64,000 nucleotides of DNA from an uncultured bacterium (lineage in GTDB: Bacteria; Patescibacteriota; Andersenbacteria; UBA10190; CAIZMI01), in assembly GCA_903934015.1 (NCBI GenBank), contig CAIZMI010000034.1, positions 20,378 to 84,377 of the forward strand, in the 5' to 3' direction. Shown piece after piece: positions 3,581-64,000 of this stretch. The position numbers and the translations under genes are program-made. A model generated the notes under the pieces. The model ran no database searches. It was not told the DNA's origin and saw nothing but the letters and a program-made list of their open reading frames with translations. The stretch's first letter is position 1, and every line of letters begins with the position of its first letter.

Positions 3581-3711
3581 GGAGAGGTGCCAGAGTGGCC
3601 GAATGGGCGTCCCTGGAAAGGACGTAAGTCCGAAAGGGCTTCGCGAGTTCGCCCACGCACCACGCAGGGTGCGGGGCGCCCAGAACCCAACGTGGTTCTG
3701 TGGCGAATCTC
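3581..3711 (+). pseudogene. tRNA-Ser(GGA) pseudo-copy with a 54-nt insertion in the T-loop and a divergent 3' end
   Basis: The first 70 nt are identical to the intact tRNA-Ser downstream (ggagaggtgccagagtggccgaatgggcgtccctggaaaggacgtaagtccgaaagggcttcgcgagttcg). A 54-nt hairpin-containing insert follows, then aatctc, then sequence that cannot pair with the acceptor 5' strand. Confidence 0.55.
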
Positions 3712-3877: not shown

Positions 3878-3885
3878 GCCTGAGC

Positions 3886-3950
3886 AACCAACTGCTTGGC
3901 TCACGGCGAGATTTGAACGGCAAGCGATATCTCGCTCGACTGAATACGAA
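3886..3950 (+). repeat. tRNA-linked module 2, Ser copy: hairpin containing aactgcttg, then an antisense Ser T-arm (gcgagatttgaac), then a gaacggcaagcgat hairpin
   Basis: Same architecture as 6305-6365 downstream of tRNA-Lys (caactgcttg…gaatcgaacggcgagcgat). Confidence 0.5.
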
Positions 3951-5888: not shown

Positions 5889-6084
5889 AAAAACAAAACA
5901 TACAACTAACAACAAATGAAGGTTGTATTTTTTCATAAAATAAAGCAGAATAGGTTATCGTTTTACGCGCTCGTAGCTTCCCACTCCGCTCAATCTCTGG
6001 ATTGAGCTACGAGGGACAAGTATTGGAATAATAAACCATTGCCTGTCCACCGTAGCTCCGTTCCGCAGAATGGAGCGAAGGTGG

Positions 6085-6157
6085 GCGCTCGTAGCTCAAT
6101 TGGCAGAGCAGGGGCCTCTTAAGCCCAAGGTTGAAGGTTCGATTCCTTCCGAGCGCA
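6085..6157 (+). tRNA. tRNA-Lys (anticodon CTT)
   Basis: Acceptor gcgctcg/cgagcgc; D-arm gctc-aattggc-agagc; anticodon loop ctCTTaa; T-arm gaagg-ttcgatt-ccttc; discriminator A. Confidence 0.85.
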
Positions 6158-6426
6158 CTCTCGTTGATTAGTTTTGCGAAGCAAAACAATCCAAACGTAC
6201 ATAAAATAGCTCCACGTCCTGTGGAGCTATTTTACACAAGAATCAATGAACTCCGAAAGTTTGCGACAAGAGACGCAAAATTTCGGAGCTACCTTTGATT
6301 GCAACACAACTGCTTGTGTTGCGTGAAGGAATCGAACGGCGAGCGATGTTATGCAGAACCGCTCGCCGATGGCCAGATACTTGCGTATCAACGCGAGTTT
6401 CGAGGCCGATTCCTTCCGAGCGCACT
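6158..6426 (+). repeat. tRNA-Lys-linked miniature element ending in a 20-nt direct repeat of the tRNA 3' end
   Basis: cgattccttccgagcgcact occurs at 6140-6159 (inside the tRNA) and again at 6407-6426. In between are the conserved module 1 (two hairpins, acgtacataaaat, ttttacacaagaatca), a ctccgaaa…tttcggag hairpin, the aactgcttg hairpin, and an antisense T-arm gaaggaatcgaac. Confidence 0.6.
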
Positions 6427-6478
6427 AATATTAAACAAGCGCAGACCAAAGTCCGCGCTTATTTTTTATTTTAAATAA

Positions 6479-9883: not shown

Positions 9884-11053
9884 CTATCGATTTCCTTTTG
9901 CCCGATTGTGCGTCTTACACAACATCTCACAATTTTTAGCTGTTGTTTTACCACCCTTGCTCCACGCCGATACGTGATCGGCTTCCATTTCACCAAAACT
10001 CCAAATTTTACACTTGTTAGCATCATGGCCAATTACACAATTTGAGCAATTTGATTGACCTTTTTTCTCTGCTTTAGCGGTCTGTGTTGAGTAAATACTT
10101 CTCTTTGTTGCTTCATCAAAGATTCGAACGTCAAGCAATTTTGTGTCAGTGGAGCCGCCGAGAATATACTCAAAAATGCCTTTGCGATTTTTGACGTACG
10201 GATCACCATAGAGCTTTCGTACCTCGCCTGTCACCTTAACGGGATCATAAGCTTTCTTATGGTATTGCTCATATAGTCGCCCCCACTCCAGTCCTCGCAT
10301 CTCACTTTCAACATCTATAAACACACTTGAAACCCAATCAACTACACTACCGAAATACCTTTTCAGCTCGGCAACATTTTTATCAAAACGATGTCGGCTC
10401 ATATAATCGCCAACGTTGCCTTTGCTTACCCAATCAAGCGCACGCTCCAAAAAATCCTGCCTGTTAACACTACCCGCTACATACGCGCCCCATTTTTGGA
10501 TGTTGGCATTTTGGCTATTGCTAAACTCTTCTTTACCAAGCGTCACAAATGGCCCAGAATACACGGCGTTAAGCAACTCCTGATTATTAAGTGGAACTCC
10601 GGCGATGTTGATTGTTTTAAACCATTCTTTTATCTCGCTTTCTTTCCCTTCGCATTCGTAAATAAGCAATGTTGTTATTAAAATTTTATCCTGCTTGTCT
10701 TTTGCCATACCACTAAAATTTTGTGGATTGCCGTTTTCATCTTTGATGGCAAATTTATCAGTCACAAAACGTCCAATACTTGTTATACGTTGTTGCCCAT
10801 CCAAAACTTCCAGCCCATCGTCATCGACTTTATTAAAATAAATTAGGCCAATCGGATAGCCCTTAAGGATTGACTCAATAACAGCTACTTCTTTTTTACC
10901 GCCGTCGGAAGAATATATGTAGTTGCGCTGATATTCTGGCTGAATCGTTAATTTGCCAGACAAGCCAAACAACCCCTTGCCCTCCAATTCGTTATAAACG
11001 AATCCTTCGCAAATAGCTTTGATGGTAATTTCGATTTTCAAAGTAGTTTTCAT
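9884..11053 (-). CDS. DUF262 (ParB-like, DGQQR motif) plus C-terminal HNH endonuclease; GmrSD-like nuclease
   Basis: The [11 protein letters not shown] motif is in the N-terminal half. The C-terminus has an HNH signature ([14 protein letters not shown]…[11 protein letters not shown]…[15 protein letters not shown]). The start codon at 11053-11051 lies 1 nt after the upstream methyltransferase stop. Confidence 0.7.
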
Positions 11054-11054
11054 A

Positions 11055-12230
11055 TTATTTTTTTTTATGTCTAATGAGTACTCTTTGATAAACTTTTTCA
11101 TGTAAACCAGCTCGAATAACTACTCCACTTGCATTCAAATCATAAACTCCCCTTTTTTTGAATTTATCTAAATATGCTTGCTTACATTCCGTTGATTTGT
11201 ACACTTTTGTTTTTAGTTTATATAAATCTTCGTTTTCACACATCCCAACAATACCAAACTGTTCTGGGGAGTGTTTATCAAGAAAACTAATCGGTACACC
11301 CATTAATCCGTTGTAATCACTTGGAATATTTTTTACTAAAGATACTTCTAAGGCATTATAATTATCGTATTTTTCAAATGGTTTTTTCGTTACAAACTTA
11401 ATAATCTCGGCTTCAGTCATGAGTGGCAACGGCTGATGACGACGTCCATGATCAAGATTGGTGAACCAACGAACACCTTGCACTCGGGTGATATAAACTT
11501 TCTTACCTCTCTCATTTGTTTTAATTTCACGAACTTGATCCAAATTAGCAATCTTTTCGGGTATCTCAAAAAACATCGCGCCAGCATTGACTTTGTAATT
11601 GTTGCCCAACCACACTTTATTCTCTTTAATTAGTGGAAATATTTCTTTGTAGGTAATTGCATTCAAGTTGCCAATGATCAAAAACTTTTTATCATAATCA
11701 ACAAGTTGTTTTATATACTCGCGAAACAGGCTAAACGGAGGATTTGTTACCACAATATCAGACTGCTTCAGAAATTCTATAGATTCATTGCTACGGAAAT
11801 CGCCGTTTCCTTTAAGCAGAGTTGTTACATTTTGATCCTGCCTCAACAAACACTCTATATCCTCAAGGTTTACTGCACCATCATTATTTAAATCTTTTAC
11901 CTCATTGATTTCAATTTTGAACGGCTGTTTTCTAGTGAACCTTCTTAATCCTTCTATCCCAGACAACGGAAATATAGTGCCGGTAATAGGTGATGGAACA
12001 TAACTTGTAGTAATAAGTTTTTTAAGTCCAATATTATTGAATTTTAATACAAAGTATTTGAAAAAATTACTTTCATACGGATCGTCACAGTTGCAATACA
12101 CTACTTTGCCTCGAAACACATCAGGATTGTATTCCAAATACGCTTCAATCTCTTTCTGGATATCTACGAATTGCGTATAGAACTCGTCGTTCTTTACTCT
12201 TTTTGCGTTAGTAAGATTTTTGTTTGCCAT
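11055..12230 (-). CDS. DNA methyltransferase, adenine-type (EcoRI-methylase-like N-terminus, NPPF catalytic motif)
   Basis: KNDEFYTQ near the N-terminus and the motif IV sequence [13 protein letters not shown]. Confidence 0.75.
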
Positions 12231-12245
12231 AATTTTATTCCTATT

Positions 12246-12452
12246 CTACGGATAAAATTCAAATTCGCTCATTATTTTTTTATTATCGACAATCTGCTCC
12301 TGTATCGCATCTCGAACAGAAGCAATCATCTCGATATCCCACTTTATTTTTTTGGACGAAGGAATAAAACTTTGCATCAATTCGAAAATTTGATTATCAA
12401 CAAAATCCTGCCTTTCTATTTGCTTATTAGTTAATTTGGACATTTTTATCAT
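12246..12452 (-). CDS. small hypothetical protein (69 aa)
   Basis: The ORF is trimmed to its internal Met because the longer version overlaps tRNA-Ser(GCT). Confidence 0.25.
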   Translation of the reverse strand: MIKMSKLTNKQIERQDFVDNQIFELMQSFIPSSKKIKWDIEMIASVRDAIQEQIVDNKKIMSEFEFYP

Positions 12453-12580: not shown

Positions 12581-13633
12581 TTATTTGTTCATCTTTCTCA
12601 AGTGCTTTGGATTATGAGAACCAATAAGTTCTATGTATTGTTTTACAGCTGCCCTACTCTCGATAAAAATATCTCGATCCCGCATATTTGCCCAAACACC
12701 GATTTTGCGGAGAGATTCGTGAACTGAATTAAGCAAAGGCGGAGAAGCGGATGTAAAACTAATCTTTTTGTAGCGATAATCTTTGCCTCTTATACGATAT
12801 TGATGCCAATAAACCGAACCATCCGTATCAAAAAGACCTCGAATACAAGGAATTAAATAATTCCGCTTTCTCTTGATCCACATTGGAATATCTATTTTTT
12901 GTCTAATTTTGTTTCCCTTAACCAGACCCAAGTGTTCTATACAAAAGTGAACCATCTCCGTCCGGCTTACGCGATAATCGTTTGCTAAAGCATCTTTACT
13001 AATTATCACGCTCGGTCTAACTCCAAACAATTTCTGAATTAAACTGCATACAAAGATACCGTATTCATGATCATCATACCTGTGTAACGTAACAGTTAGT
13101 TGATAACGGGTTATTCCACCATCACCAAGCATCAATCCGACAAACTCGGCTAATTCCGGTGATTTCATAGGCTTTCTAAACGGCAAACTTTTCCAAAGTA
13201 TTTTGTGTTCTTGATATTTCCCTTTCTCATTCCACCATTTTGTCCACTGCACTCGGCGATAATCCTCATCCATACCAATCCGTCCATATTTTTTAAACAT
13301 TGCTTTACCACCCAAACTGCCAATTTTTTCAAGGCGTTTATTCCATTTTAATAAACTGGCAGAGGTAGGTATTTGTACTCCGCTTTTTTGAGCTAGCGTT
13401 TTAGCGTGGATAAATGACATGTGATACTTCTCTCTCTTCCAATCACAAAGCGTACGCCTATTAATGGCCAACAAACCGGCTAAGAATGGTGTTGATACAT
13501 TTAATTTTGAAGCAACGTTTTCAATAAATTTGCGTTGCTCTTCAGGTTCAAAAATGATCCTGTCTAACTTATCCACTTCATCTATCATGTGGTAATTATA
13601 CAACAAATACGAACATTTTACGAACGTCATTGT
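12581..13633 (-). CDS. double-motif LAGLIDADG homing endonuclease, free-standing
   Basis: Two LAGLIDADG motifs, FVGLMLGDGGI and IRGLFDTDGSV. The start is taken at the internal Met (MTFVKC…) because the 5' extension of the ORF covers a conserved structured non-coding element. Confidence 0.7.
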   Translation of the reverse strand, partial: TMTFVKCSYLLYNYHMIDEVDKLDRIIFEPEEQRKFIENVASKLNVSTPFLAGLLAINRRTLCDWKREKYHMSFIHAKTLAQKSGVQIPTSASLLKWNKRLEKIGSLGGKAMFKKYGRIGMDEDYRRVQWTKWWNEKGKYQEHKILWKSLPFRKPMKSPELAEFVGLMLGDGGITRYQLTVTLHRYDDHEYGIFVCSLIQKLFGVRPSVIISKDALANDYRVSRTEMVHFCIEHLGLVKGNKIRQKIDIPMWIKRKRNYLIPCIRGLFDTDGSVYWHQYRIRGKDYRYKKISFTSASPPLLNSVHESLRKIGVWANMRDRDIFIESRAAVKQYIELIGSHNPKHLRKMNK

Positions 13634-13639
13634 TTTTGC

Positions 13640-13737
13640 ACAATCCGATTCTTGTGCAAAACAGCATTCGCGTTTAGCGAATGCTGTTTTGTGTACATTT
13701 TTTTGTTTCACTAAGCGAAACAAATCTCGAGTGTCCC
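13640..13737 (-). repeat. conserved tRNA-linked module 1 (Arg-locus copy)
   Basis: The minus strand reads ctcgagatttgtttcgcttagtgaaac…aatgtacacaaaaca, a hairpin (cagcattcg…cgaatgctg), then ttttgcacaagaatcgga. The element at 63660-63760 after tRNA-Glu is near-identical, and the Lys copy at 6158-6245 is related. Confidence 0.6.
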
Positions 13738-13830
13738 CGGCAGGACTTGGCCTCGCCTCAAAAATACTGATGTATTTTTGGGCTGGCCACCGCCTCGTGT
13801 TATCTTCGAATAACACTCCGGCGTTCAAGT
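13712..13830 (-). repeat. palindromic element: inverted copies of the tRNA-Arg 3' end (15 bp, ccccggcaggacttg) flanking a two-hairpin core
   Basis: The core (cgccggagt…hairpin…acgaggcggtggccagccc…hairpin…gaggcgaggcc) also occurs inside the interrupted tRNA-Arg copy at 14035-14137. Both hairpins show compensatory base changes between the two copies. Confidence 0.55.
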
Positions 13831-13889
13831 CCTGCCGGGGGATTTAGAAAAAAGACAATCGCACCGCGATTGCCATTTTTCTAAATCTG

Positions 13890-13963
13890 TGTCCCCGGCA
13901 GGACTTGAACCTGCAACCTTCAGCTCCGCAAGCTGACGCTCTGTCCAGTTGAGCTACAGAGAC
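13890..13963 (-). tRNA. tRNA-Arg (anticodon GCG, inferred)
   Basis: Acceptor gtctctg pairs with cggggac through two G-U pairs. D-arm gctc-aactggac-agagc; anticodon stem tcagc/gctga with loop ttGCGga; T-arm gcagg-ttcaagt-cctgc; discriminator A. Confidence 0.7.
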
Positions 13964-14017
13964 ATAATTAGTCTCTTTTTTGTAATGATATCATTTTAAT
14001 TCTTTTTTGAAATCTAC

Positions 14018-14190
14018 CAAGCCGGCAGGACTTGGCCTCGCCTCTCGGAGTGTTGATACACTCCTCGGGCTGGCCACCGCCTCGTATTGCTTGCGAGCAA
14101 TACTCCGGCGCTGAAAAACCATTAAGGGTTTTTCAGCCTGCAACCTTCAGCTCCGCAAGCTGACGCTCTGTCCAGTTGAGCTACAGAGAC
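14018..14190 (-). pseudogene. interrupted tRNA-Arg copy: nucleotides 1-53 identical to the intact gene, a ~105-nt structured insert in the T-loop, then 12 nt of tRNA identity before diverging
   Basis: Plus strand cctgcaaccttcagctccgcaagctgacgctctgtccagttgagctacagagac matches the intact copy. The insert replaces ttc of the T-loop. The 3' acceptor strand is cggcttg, which cannot pair with the 5' strand. Confidence 0.55.
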
Positions 14191-14270
14191 ATAATTAGTC
14201 TCTTTTGACCTCTTCTTGATTACTTGCTAACAGATAATGACACAAATATCTCAAACCGGCAATATCAATA

Positions 14271-43718: not shown

Positions 43719-43961
43719 TTATTTCAAATGTCTTCGCAATAAAAATTTTGTGGTGAGTTTTAGTTTTCTGTCTATGCGCAAATCATCAACGATTTTTGCC
43801 AAATTTTGCCAATCTTCTTCTGTCAAATAACGCCACAACAGACGGTTGATGAAGCGACTGTAATATTGACGTTCTTCCGCTGTATTCCGCCATGGCTGTT
43901 TGCACAACATTCCGTCCCAGTTGGTTAACGCCTCAAGATCCGAAGATGAATAGTTCATCAT
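43719..43961 (-). CDS. small conserved hypothetical protein (80 aa) translationally coupled to the upstream NTase gene
   Basis: ATGA overlap with the 43958-44629 gene. A pseudogenised paralog lies at 41437-41739. Confidence 0.5.
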   Translation of the reverse strand: MMNYSSSDLEALTNWDGMLCKQPWRNTAEERQYYSRFINRLLWRYLTEEDWQNLAKIVDDLRIDRKLKLTTKFLLRRHLK

Positions 43962-44629
43962 AAGGTCGTACTGTTAATTAATTTATCTATTTGTGCTGTA
44001 ACTAATTCAATATTTGTTATGCCGTCACGTAAAAACATCTCCGGCCTTAATTGAAACTGCTCCCTTTTCGCAACAAGCTCGCTTAATAATTTTTCTTCAC
44101 CAATCGTTCCCAAACGAAATTTCTTTTCTGCGATTTCAGCAAGATTACGAAGAGACCAATTTTGTTTTTTTGTAAGAAAGGCAATATCGATATAATCCTT
44201 AATTTCATCTCGCGAACAAAGCGCCGACGCTTTGCCGGCGGCCGCATCTTCCAAACTCGCCGTTGCCAATGTTCCAAACACTACAAAGCTCCCAATTTGG
44301 GAAATATTATCGTGTACCGCGTCAATCACCATTCCACTGGCCTTATCCATCCAACCGCGATCAGTATCGACAATTTGATCAACACCAAAAAGCTCTTGCG
44401 CCAAACGGTGCAACCGGATCATCCGTTGGTTAAATACAAGCGCATCAACTTCCGGATAAGTAAAAAAATCAAGATCATTTGATTGTCGCGGAACAATACC
44501 CAACGCTTTTAATAATGTGCCACCGGTCAAATAAAAAGTACGCGCCAGTTCAACATCGTCAGCCACGTTTTTAATCACCTCCAATTGCGGTTCAGTTAAA
44601 TCTTGCAACTCATCAATTGTTCTAATCAT
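43958..44629 (-). CDS. nucleotidyltransferase of the AbiEii/DUF1814-like toxin family
   Basis: YLTGGTLLKALGIVPRQSNDLDFF resembles the AbiEii GGTAL…R.S.D.DF motif. Confidence 0.55.
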   Translation of the reverse strand: MIRTIDELQDLTEPQLEVIKNVADDVELARTFYLTGGTLLKALGIVPRQSNDLDFFTYPEVDALVFNQRMIRLHRLAQELFGVDQIVDTDRGWMDKASGMVIDAVHDNISQIGSFVVFGTLATASLEDAAAGKASALCSRDEIKDYIDIAFLTKKQNWSLRNLAEIAEKKFRLGTIGEEKLLSELVAKREQFQLRPEMFLRDGITNIELVTAQIDKLINSTTL

Positions 44630-63659: not shown

Positions 63660-63964
63660 CTCGAGATTTGTTTCGCTTAGCGAAACTATATAATGTACAC
63701 AAAACAACCAAACATCCCGTTTGGTTGTTTTGCACAAGAATCGAAGAACTCCGAGACTCTAGGCGCTCGATAGCGCCGAGTCTCGGAGCAGCATTGATTA
63801 ATGCCCTTTACGGGTGTTTTTAAATATCTTCTGTCGAATATGGGGAATCGAACGGTATTTTGAAAACATGAACTGCTTCATGTTTTCAAAAACCGAGGCT
63901 TCGCAGGAGGAGTTGCGCATCGAGCCGAAGCGAGGCGCAGCGACGGAAGCGAAGGATTCCCCGT
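63660..63964 (+). repeat. tRNA-Glu-linked miniature element: conserved module 1 plus hairpins, an antisense T-arm, and a 19-nt direct repeat of the tRNA 3' end
   Basis: Contains ctcgagatttgtttcgcttagcgaaac…aatgtacacaaaaca, a hairpin, then ttttgcacaagaatcgaa. A hairpin ctccgagactc…gagtctcggag follows, then the antisense T-arm ggggaatcgaac. cgattccccgtggggctac occurs at 63641-63659 and again at 63946-63964. Confidence 0.6.
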
Positions 63965-64000
63965 GGGGCTACCAAGTAATAAAAACACCGTGCCAAAAGC

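Follow-up and report, generated by a model that had tools for sequence, protein, structure and literature searches.

A T-loop sublocation class of tRNA integration sites is reportedly due to Williams in 2002, integron attC sites are said to have been treated by Bouvier et al. in 2005, and CTX elements form tandem arrays. Positions 53-57 of the T-loop are the region used by integrases of the T-loop class, e.g. that of Ms6 at tRNA-Ala (PMC1762012), folded single-stranded attachment sites are established for integron attC (PMC4792948), and integrative mobile elements exploiting Xer (IMEX) of the CTXphi type combine a folded single-stranded, forked-hairpin attP with the host XerCD recombinase (PMC3089051, PMC3442271). 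Accretion of decayed att-flanked elements, the cis-mobilizable elements (CIMEs), has also been documented (PMC5704250), and in Patescibacteria the anticodon loops of tRNA genes carry group I introns (e.g. at 35/36), which are spliced ribozymes (PMC13011429). Here we analyse a 64,000-nt stretch of an uncultured member of the Patescibacteriota (assembly GCA_903934015.1, contig CAIZMI010000034.1, positions 20,378 to 84,377; hereafter the window), in which the tRNA-Lys gene is followed by a 267-bp segment (6159-6426) that ends in a direct repeat of the tRNA 3' end. The window is otherwise an ordinary chromosomal segment with genes for ClpB, aminoacyl-tRNA synthetases, TsaD, 5-enolpyruvylshikimate-3-phosphate synthases, cell-wall functions and one IS3 transposase.

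With due reserve, we lean towards reading 6159-6426 as a non-coding insertion in the 3' part of tRNA-Lys and as one of a family of tRNA-targeting mini-elements of about 160-300 bp, each with a folded attachment site that an enzyme would act upon in trans. Units of the same architecture are restricted to tRNA genes, covary in structure, are present in some relatives and absent in others, stand in serial arrays and share modules; the literature that we searched holds no description of comparable units. The contigs of relatives are designated by L-numbers, L001-L005 representing the strain itself: these five carry an identical neighbour protein (100% identity) and, being the same strain, are uninformative on polymorphism. 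More distant relatives were reached through two window proteins and a metagenome pattern scan, with sources that include JGI, ENA and NCBI projects.

The tRNA-Lys unit and its counterparts in the window

The tRNA-Lys(CTT) gene is intact (6085-6158, plus strand, as are the features of this locus unless otherwise given; ARAGORN, and 70.9 bits with the Rfam tRNA model) and ends at C74 without an encoded CCA, the trailer that we call module 1 being joined to it directly. The 20-nt sequence CGATTCCTTCCGAGCGCACT, which at 6140-6159 comprises tRNA-Lys positions 56-74 plus one base, has exactly two copies in the window, none being expected from 100 shuffles, so that the direct repeat from which an earlier sequence-only reading of this DNA had started is real; the second copy, the sense repeat S2 (6407-6426), is exact over the same positions. 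Ahead of S2 lies gaaggaatcgaac (6325-6337), the exact antisense of tRNA-Lys 53-65, i.e. of the T-loop and the 3' strand of the T-stem, found one nucleotide from where it had first been placed. Both in the minimum free energy fold and as helix 1 of the alignment described below, this antisense segment pairs with 6407-6417 and closes the Lys unit. The arms enclose a core of what we call type A (6338-6406; covariance-model match 6321-6426, 91.8 bits), made up of the 8-bp stem P1 (6338-6367), the invariant GATGGCCAG (6368-6376), stem P2 with an ATCA tetraloop (6379-6398) and the invariant CGAGGC (6401-6406), which abuts the second repeat; GGCC at 6371-6374 is paired with GGCC at 6404-6407. The antisense segment is preceded by hairpin D (6301-6322), a 9-bp stem with a conserved CTGC tetraloop (AACTGCTT). 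The same loop recurs on differing stems at the window tRNA-Ser(GGA) (about 3881-3903) and in L247, L275, L277 and L278, and it is found also within P1 of a second core type, B.

Between the tRNA and this unit, module 1 (6159-6295) presents three hairpins, A (6171-6187), B (6203-6233, A/T-flanked and flagged as terminator-like) and C (6251-6288), together with CACAAGAATCAATG (6235-6248), a decayed antisense T-arm of a tRNA-Lys variant. Its motif is common to the Lys and Glu trailers, as the sequence-only reading had noticed, and 11 copies were compared. Since the module-1 motif CACAAGAATCGAAG differs at one position from the antisense of the T-arm (CCAAG-TTCGATT-CTTGG) of the tRNA-Lys variant in L277 and L280, a terminator followed by what is left of an older antisense/hairpin unit is the best reading of module 1. 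The 267-bp Lys segment is composite in this sense, and its functional-looking part is the three-way-junction unit at 6301-6426. The insert between the repeats contains no long open reading frame (ORF) and is overlapped by two TTG ORFs (60 and 68 aa; minus strand) that fell outside the domain scan; BLAST of the insert against phage and plasmid records gave no match. On the other side of the gene, about 70 nt 5' of tRNA-Lys, fragments of its 5' end (5967-6013, plus strand, read from the sequence) repeat positions 1-12 (5967-5978) and 10-16 (5988-5995) in sense and positions 4-16 (6001-6013) in antisense orientation, and make a hairpin that is kept in L279 and partly in L275. This hairpin is a 5'-side mirror of the sense/antisense arrangement at the 3' side of tRNA-Lys.

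The layout recurs in the window, complete at tRNA-Lys, tRNA-Arg and tRNA-Glu and degenerate at tRNA-Ser(GGA): tRNA, trailer or terminator, CTGC-loop hairpin, antisense of tRNA positions ~53-65/70, P1, the GGCC helix with P2 (ATCA) and the sense copy of 56-74. The earlier claim that the elements are matched to their cognate tRNAs holds, and each complete insert is bounded by an intact tRNA and a repeat of that tRNA's own 3' end. A third complete window unit stands at tRNA-Arg(GCG) (13889-13963, minus strand), which the sequence-only reading had overlooked together with the interrupted pseudo-copies upstream of the Arg and Ser-GGA genes and the Lys 5'-end fragments. The type-A unit 3' of tRNA-Arg(GCG) (13730-13842, minus strand; covariance-model match 103.7 bits) has a perfect 18-nt antisense of T-loop, T-stem and acceptor 3' strand (positions ~53-70; 13823-13840), the core box GGTGGCCAG (13783-13791), a P2 with ATCA loop, CGAGGCC and a 19-nt sense repeat of the tRNA end (13731-13749), all on the minus strand. 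A predicted intrinsic terminator (13854-13874, minus strand) stands between gene and unit, and beyond the unit the first 26 nt of module 1 follow (13705-13730, minus strand), with one difference from the start of the Glu trailer.

At tRNA-Glu, the claim of the same arrangement holds for the layout and fails for coordinates and length, the repeat being one of 18 nt at 63955-63972, not at 63946-63964. The insert (63661-63972, plus strand, like its parts) begins with module 1 (63661 to about 63790) and continues with the antisense segment ggggaatcgaac (63842-63853), a type-B core, formed by a long P1 with the CTGC loop and a second domain, and the sense repeat, which runs on into the CA of an encoded CCA; a unit homologous to it is found at tRNA-Ser(GCT) of L127. 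The degenerate unit 3' of tRNA-Ser(GGA) (3881-3935, plus strand) retains the CTGC-loop hairpin, the antisense ggcgagatttgaac (3905-3918, plus strand, one mismatch) and a truncated P1, no sense repeat being left; its part gcgagatttgaac (3906-3918) shows a single mismatch to the T-arm antisense, in agreement with the sequence-only reading, and a complete orthologue of the unit exists at L275 4650-4822.

Upstream of two of these genes stand interrupted tRNA copies. The tRNA-Arg pseudo-copy (about 14015-14207, minus strand; covariance-model match 93.8 bits) consists, in this order, of 17 nt of upstream sequence, tRNA 1-53, a hairpin, a type-A core replacing T54-T55, tRNA 56-68 and a decayed acceptor end, and an interrupted copy whose hairpin and core match it lies upstream of tRNA-Arg(CCG) in L263. 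The tRNA-Ser(GGA) pseudo-copy (3581-3711, plus strand) is 100% identical to the tRNA through G57, then carries a 54-nt insert of two hairpins (3652-3705) and resumes from A58 on with 'aatctc'. Because the upstream interrupted copies carry the same core, a plain 3'-end att model is incomplete. The insert in the Ser-GGA copy belongs to a second type, 38-54 nt with two GC-rich hairpins placed exactly at G57|A58 of an otherwise perfect tRNA 5' copy, which we encountered in two tRNAs of two genomes: at 3581-3711 of the window (Ser-GGA) and at L275 10936-11030 (minus strand), in a tRNA-Lys copy beside a GIY-YIG ORF.

Conserved fold, junctions and occupancy in relatives

Seven type-A units from five contigs, associated with the Lys, Arg-GCG, Arg-CCG, Ser-GCT and Val tRNAs, could be aligned and share invariant TGGCCAG and CGAGGCC boxes. 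On this alignment RNAalifold independently predicts P1, the GGCC:GGCC helix and a closing helix, which is antisense:sense except in the upstream forms, where the T-stem takes its place. Double compensatory changes affect 11 of the 20 pairs and 95% of the cells are paired, against at most 46% in slid registers, and none of 500 shuffles reaches any of the five measures. P2 was misaligned by MAFFT and was judged in individual folds; it forms in every unit individually, with the ATCA loop in 7 of 8 and on unrelated stems. The unit of about 110 nt folds as a three-way junction, each unit alone giving the closing helix, P1 and GGCC/P2, and the 131-nt Lys unit folded as DNA reaches z = -8.3. A distance of 70-100 nt separates the antisense segment from the sense segment, and the two form a helix of 10-15 bp, as in a folded attP. 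A covariance model built from the alignment retrieved 10 significant matches in 248 kb of related sequence, every one of them beside a tRNA gene and 3 outside the training set. By Rfam, the tRNAs alone pass the gathering threshold, the best matches to any other family (ribozymes, introns, Y RNA and small RNAs among them) being far below it. Among the matches listed in the metagenome scan with the core pattern at least two, L247 and L263, are true members and the remainder are GC-rich chance matches; three type-A core patterns run on viral contigs returned GC-rich chance matches and nothing else, and the module-1 motif CACAAGAATCNNNGAACTCCGA had no match in viral contigs and one in the genome contig collection, in a metagenome-assembled genome of the Alphaproteobacteria, probably by chance.

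The relatives display the units in diverse states of occupancy. At tRNA-Ser(GCT) of L127 there are two tandem units, an inner one of type B, Glu-like, and an outer one of type A, Lys/Arg-like, which has mismatches in both its antisense and its sense parts and is thus more decayed than the inner; in L247 tRNA-Val is followed by a type-A unit and two trailers, tRNA-Ser(GGA) of L275 exhibits the complete Lys-like layout, and L277 has units at tRNA-Ser(GCT) and tRNA-Arg. Visibly decayed or truncated units are those of the window Ser-GGA, L127 Arg and L278 Lys. Empty sites, for which the sequence-only reading had recommended a comparison with related genomes and whose absence it had named among the grounds for refutation, do exist: tRNA-Lys is bare in L275 and L279, tRNA-Ser(GGA) in L276 and L278, and tRNA-Glu and tRNA-Arg in L132. 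The orthologous spacer between tRNA-Lys and a convergent gene of 189 aa varies, from 21 nt in L275 and about 40 in L279 to about 230 in L278, 510 in L277 and 810 in L280. With respect to six related contigs the tRNA-Lys block from the promoter to the displaced 3' end (window 5900-6470) is inverted, the blocks compared being L275 10540-11400, L278 10540-10980 and L279 9860-10200, and the flanking 189-aa gene and the XRE gene stay in place. Assembly breaks and 100-nt scaffold gaps (L001 7141-7242; L002 8082-8183; the ends of L127 and L128) fall at a 71-nt tRNA-Ser(GGA) duplicate and inside module 1, and these repeats therefore fragment metagenome assemblies of this lineage. In a relative that is more distant (L129 5138-5222), tRNA-Ser(TGA) is followed after about 60 nt by a diverged copy of the T-arm and acceptor 3' end with a hairpin before it; such displacement of tRNA 3' ends may be widespread outside the circle of close relatives.

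The direction of insertion can be read from the junctions. Occupied tRNA genes all end at C74, joined either to module 1, which starts with TCGAGA or TCTC, or to a terminator, and the distal sense copies of Glu in the window and Ser-GGA in L275 run into CCA, like the bare Ser-GGA of L276 and the bare Lys of L279. It follows that the native gene end is the distal copy and that the proximal one was imported; by analogy with the Glu and L275 Ser-GGA repeats, S2 of the Lys unit is interpreted as the original 3' end of that gene, displaced. At four loci (Arg in the window, unit 1 of L127 Ser, L247 and L277 Ser) module 1 comes after a sense copy rather than after a tRNA, so that a second unit was evidently inserted into an occupied gene, and such serial insertion fits the documented scheme of CIME accretion (PMC5704250). 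Identity of the sense copy with the tRNA begins at position 56 in type A or 57 in type B, the antisense segment extends as far as the complement of position 53 or 54, and the break in the upstream interrupted copies follows G53 where the core is of type A and G57 where the insert is of the two-hairpin type, which puts all junctions within T-loop positions 53-57. The 11 module-1 copies all begin right after tRNA position 74 (two extracted windows being offset by one base), and their similarities disregard orthology: the window Lys copy is 87% identical to that of L247 Val and only 74% to the orthologous L127 Lys copy, which in turn shares 87% with the window Glu copy. Judged by these sequence identities, the trailer subfamilies cut across tRNA identity and genome, which supports mobility. 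The idea of tRNA-targeted integration thus survives in the form of small targeted insertions, on account of the empty sites, the decayed outer copies, the CCA and the shared trailers; the classic integrase-mediated attL/attR that had been proposed is unproven, since no tyrosine or serine recombinase was found in or near the units or among about 50 scanned ORFs of the 64-kb window.

Candidate mechanism, rival explanations and neighbouring genes

In the scheme that we favour, the element would supply a further copy of tRNA 56-74 that continues after C74 into a trailer or terminator, by which the gene would be kept intact and the native 3' end pushed downstream to become the direct repeat S2. Directly 5' of S2 it has the conserved unit, i.e. 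the CTGC-loop hairpin, the antisense of T-loop and T-stem (sometimes reaching into the acceptor stem), P1, GGCC:GGCC and P2, whose antisense pairs with the sense copy so that a three-way junction results. The folded unit, most likely as single-stranded DNA, would be the attachment site, and the fold would recombine with the T-loop region of the tRNA (junctions 53-57) through an enzyme supplied in trans. The antisense:sense helix and its core are, by analogy with attP of CTXphi and attC of integrons, probably such a folded site, on which an enzyme works in trans; what we infer here is the chemistry of recombination, a single-stranded intermediate and the enzyme itself. Each element would look adapted to its tRNA because the sense copy must rebuild a working tRNA and the antisense must pair with the sense. 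After insertion the units would decay neutrally and newcomers accumulate at the same tRNA, module 1 being one such older remnant. It is tempting to go further and to regard gene-less yet seemingly autonomous 'hairpin-att' elements as a new class of non-coding mobile DNA of the candidate phyla radiation (CPR)/Patescibacteria, able to target any tRNA gene via complementarity, a proposal that we put forward tentatively and hold to be possible but doubtful. There, the imported 3' end and the antisense would fold in single-stranded DNA as a three-way junction resembling a tRNA minihelix, and insertion at the T-loop would be due to one structure-specific host or helper enzyme, e.g. a Xer-like recombinase, a small GIY-YIG protein or another nuclease; the elements would thereby be a counterpart, at tRNA genes, of CTXphi attP or integron attC, without a dedicated integrase to specify the target.

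Several observations weigh against the interpretation as targeted mini-elements. The antisense:sense helix represents T-loop positions 56-60 and the 3' half of the T-arm only, not a complete two-armed core site of a recombinase as CTXphi has it, and the upstream interrupted copies (Arg, Ser-GGA, L263 and L275) are unpredicted by simple 3'-end insertion. None of the models accounts in full for these copies, which may stem from a second element class carrying the tRNA 5' part or from secondary deletions of the long inverted repeat formed by tRNA and antisense; the compensated differences in the anticodon stem of L263 would be accounted for in the former case, since one copy could come from the donor. 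Among the relatives, no occupied allele could be matched cleanly with an empty one sharing both of its flanks, the flanks of the empty sites being different, nor was an excised or circular form seen. Covariation in the closing helix is partly automatic, given that both of its arms copy the cognate tRNA, a caveat that does not touch P1 and P2. The sample is small, with seven type-A cores from five contigs, and two scans of large collections were swamped by GC-rich chance matches or unhelpful. Lastly, the units are devoid of recombinase, nuclease and replication genes, and the scan of about 50 window ORFs for tyrosine and serine recombinases (Phage_integrase, resolvase) found none, its sole find being the rve transposase of IS3.

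The main rival, which we deem rather unlikely, regards the units as scars: larger integrative elements or homing-endonuclease cassettes (GIY-YIG, LAGLIDADG) would invade tRNA genes time and again, and internal deletion, gene conversion and template switching in the course of double-strand-break repair would leave behind just arms and partial tRNA copies of either orientation, so that the core would be an arm of the att region of a larger element and the mini-units would never have been mobile by themselves. Indeed, ORF-bearing cassettes use the same sites (GIY-YIG in tRNA-Lys of L275 and tRNA-Ser(GGA) of L279), LAGLIDADG ORFs abut tRNA genes at several loci, many units are decayed or truncated as listed above, the inverted tRNA-Lys block tells of active rearrangement here, and decay to att-flanked CIMEs followed by accretion is documented (PMC5704250). 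Yet none of about 12 units is attached to a recombinase or to a recurrent ORF linked with the core, all of them measure 160-300 bp, and the protein combining helix-turn-helix (HTH) and LAGLIDADG domains adjoins tRNA-Ser(GCT) with or without units. Moreover, compensatory changes distinguish the P1, P2 and hairpin D stems of different copies, against invariant tetraloops and GGCC boxes, which argues for selection on the small unit itself, and the exact joining of one trailer subfamily to position 74 of different tRNAs would hardly result from random deletions. Chimeric assembly, with reads mis-joined at repeated tRNA sequences, would be a most surprising cause. The contigs L127 and L128 do break inside module 1 and scaffold gaps fall at the tRNA-Ser duplicate, evidence that the repeats trouble assemblers; but the Lys region, its repeats included, is 100% identical in three independent assemblies from differing samples (L001-L003), so the arrangement there is not an assembly artefact, and diverged homologous units with compensatory changes come from independent projects (JGI, ENA, NCBI). 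Duplication of the target site by 19-nt staggered cuts is possible but a less parsimonious account than recombination combined with selection that keeps the tRNA intact. The repeats end exactly at the functional ends of the gene, 5' and 3'.

It is improbable, in our view, that the units are RNA devices, transcribed with or after the tRNA and mimicking a minihelix, with the T-stem and acceptor 3' strand of the tRNA as its own 3' strand, to serve as a processing or regulatory element, the antisense pairing with the tRNA or with the sense copy, or as a decoy or substrate for enzymes recognising the ends of tRNAs, such as RNase P/Z, the CCA-adding enzyme and toxins aimed at tRNA. Examples of tRNA trailers with a function and of tRNA-like Y RNAs are known, the structure on the strand of the tRNA is strongly supported and slightly stabler than that of the antisense strand, no strong terminator was detected between tRNA and unit at Lys and Glu and one follows the Lys S2, the sense copy ends exactly at position 74 as tRNA genes do, the interrupted upstream copy of L263 keeps a compensated anticodon stem, and the window holds a gene for an AbiEii/MenT-type nucleotidyltransferase toxin, all of which would suit such a role. 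Against it, the units count 499 Watson-Crick pairs to 18 G.U (only 3.5% G.U) and their summed fold energies are about equal for the two strands (sense -724, antisense -689 kcal/mol), which is unusual for a selected RNA; the predicted terminator splits tRNA-Arg from its unit, and terminator-like hairpins with T-runs, read from the sequence, stand 3' of the tRNA at L127 Ser, L127 Arg, L277 Ser and the window Ser-GGA. In older copies the antisense and sense segments have diverged from the tRNA and from each other (L247 and the outer unit 2 of L127; also the window Ser-GGA), so the pairing does not persist; close relatives lack units at these same tRNAs and can hence dispense with them, none of them matches Rfam, and the compensated stem of L263 is equally explained by a functional tRNA of the donor. 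Because of the few G.U pairs, the folding of both strands, the terminators, the drift and the dispensability, we think it more likely that the units act as DNA, when insertion takes place, than that they keep up a function as RNA.

Other identities were tried and rejected. The antisense misses the 3' terminus and CCA that a retroelement primer-binding site would contain, and no reverse transcriptase was found; an IS110 bridge RNA or a TnpB/IscB guide RNA is contradicted by the lack of such a gene nearby and by sense and antisense segments that overlap instead of flanking a core. Ends of IS200/IS605 or IS91 were discarded as no HUH gene was found, a likeness to the GTTC target being noted. A miniature inverted-repeat transposable element would not have ends of the kind seen here (TCGAGA.. 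or a terminator on the left, ..CGAGGC on the right), which are not inverted repeats, and the 18-20 nt repeat is tRNA 56/57-74; known ribozymes and introns found no match in Rfam.

Turning to the neighbouring genes, the XRE gene beyond S2, whose promoter and operator the sequence-only reading had placed beside the element, was dismissed as a component of it, for relatives keep this gene next to tRNA-Lys whether they have the insert or lack it. The GC-rich hairpin with a T-run between S2 and this convergent gene (6439-6467) is the XRE terminator, conserved beside XRE in L275 and lying outside the element. The HTH-LAGLIDADG protein was rejected as the enzyme of the element for a similar reason, being a neighbour of tRNA-Ser(GCT) in every relative examined, units or not. 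Its gene (window 12581-13588, minus strand; L127 9311-10318; L129 3862-4860; L130 10001-11002; L132 10001-11002) ends about 18-23 nt upstream of tRNA-Ser(GCT) at every locus examined; the protein has 335 aa, which gene callers over-extend to 411-415 aa across the Arg unit, and more than 700 homologs, one of them, 46% identical, labelled Candidatus Paceibacterota. Candidate identities are a domesticated homing endonuclease, a maturase and a regulator transcribed together with the tRNA. No small GIY-YIG gene turned up in a search of the window for one. ORFs of 77-85 aa with GIY-YIG as their only domain occur at tRNA genes of relatives (L275 10656-10913, minus strand; L279 4764-4997 and 6188-6421), in L275 between the T-loop-interrupted and the intact tRNA-Lys and in L279 as two identical cassettes following tRNA-Ser(GGA), and they may represent a mobile cassette in its own right or else encode a nuclease that acts on the units in trans. 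Directly after tRNA-Ser(GCT) the window has a small ORF and genes for an EcoRI-type adenine methylase and a GmrSD/HNH endonuclease (9884-12434, minus strand), which may form a defence islet at this tRNA, where L127 has instead the two tandem units and a 3-dehydroquinate synthase gene. The AbiEii-family nucleotidyltransferase toxin of a type IV toxin-antitoxin system is encoded at 43958-44629 (minus strand; Pfam PF08843, E = 2e-12). Relatives of such toxins modify tRNA acceptor ends, and this gene could bear on the possible decoy function of the units.

Significance and comparison with described systems

If the units move, they would undercut in size every site-specific integrative element so far described at tRNA genes, with target choice set by a short antisense and a conserved fold rather than by a dedicated integrase, and the tRNA genes of this lineage would be repeatedly rebuilt with imported pieces. 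Such rebuilding affects annotation (pseudo-copies, loss of the encoded CCA), metagenome assembly and the inference of horizontal transfer; if true, it would also bear on the persistence of mobile DNA in the very small, gene-poor genomes of the CPR and could hint at a compact, reprogrammable insertion module. Even as mere scars, the units would document an unusually active insertion graveyard at tRNA genes.

The general plan is that of tRNA islands driven by tyrosine integrases, in which a 3' tRNA part is likewise carried, the gene rebuilt and the native end left as the far repeat, with junctions in the T-loop and arrays at one tRNA; a direct repeat of the 3' end beside an intact tRNA is found at Lys, Arg and Glu and in relatives. 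Unlike the islands, the units measure 160-300 bp instead of kilobases and are gene-less, without an integrase; at 70-100 nt from the junction they repeat the target in antisense, with a conserved three-way-junction fold in between, and one core serves at least six different tRNAs. CIMEs resemble them in being flanked by att-like repeats of the target end, in lacking integration genes and in standing in tandem with later arrivals (PMC5704250), but CIMEs are kilobase-sized decayed integrative and conjugative or integrative mobilizable elements with gene remnants. The units described here are tiny and consist of hairpins only, with compensating stems; no gene remnants lie between their repeats, nor do they show similarity to phage or plasmid records. 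Patescibacterial group I introns provide a phylum-level setting in which tRNA genes are broken by structured non-coding inserts, those seen here being distinct in size (40-110 nt), in position (T-loop 53-57), in having no intron match in Rfam and in residing in interrupted copies with broken acceptor stems beside an intact gene.

The folded attachment sites offer the closest parallels. As in IMEX of the CTXphi type, inverted target-like segments about 70-100 nt apart pair in a forked hairpin, no recombinase is encoded, the inverted pair is found after integration at one end beside the hybrid site, and tandem arrays accumulate; the target here is the tRNA from the T-loop to the 3' end and not dif, the helix covers half of a two-armed site and phage genes are lacking, so that the comparison is one of analogy, the single-stranded form and the enzyme being hypothetical here. 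With attC the units have in common a site defined by structure, imperfect inverted repeats around a variable branched tip, short length, an optional ORF and serial insertion, and their antisense arm ends in ..ATCGAAC, resembling the R'' RYYYAAC. They differ in that the sense arm is without GTTRRRY (it reads CGAGGC|CGATT), in having no IntI, attI or Pc, in forming arrays at tRNA genes and in their boxes (GRTGGCCAG, CGAGGCC and the ATCA and CTGC loops), which are unrelated to attC. Taken together, the known kind that these units call to mind is tRNA-targeted integrative DNA, here in a non-autonomous, structured and self-complementary form that looks like an apparently undescribed family.

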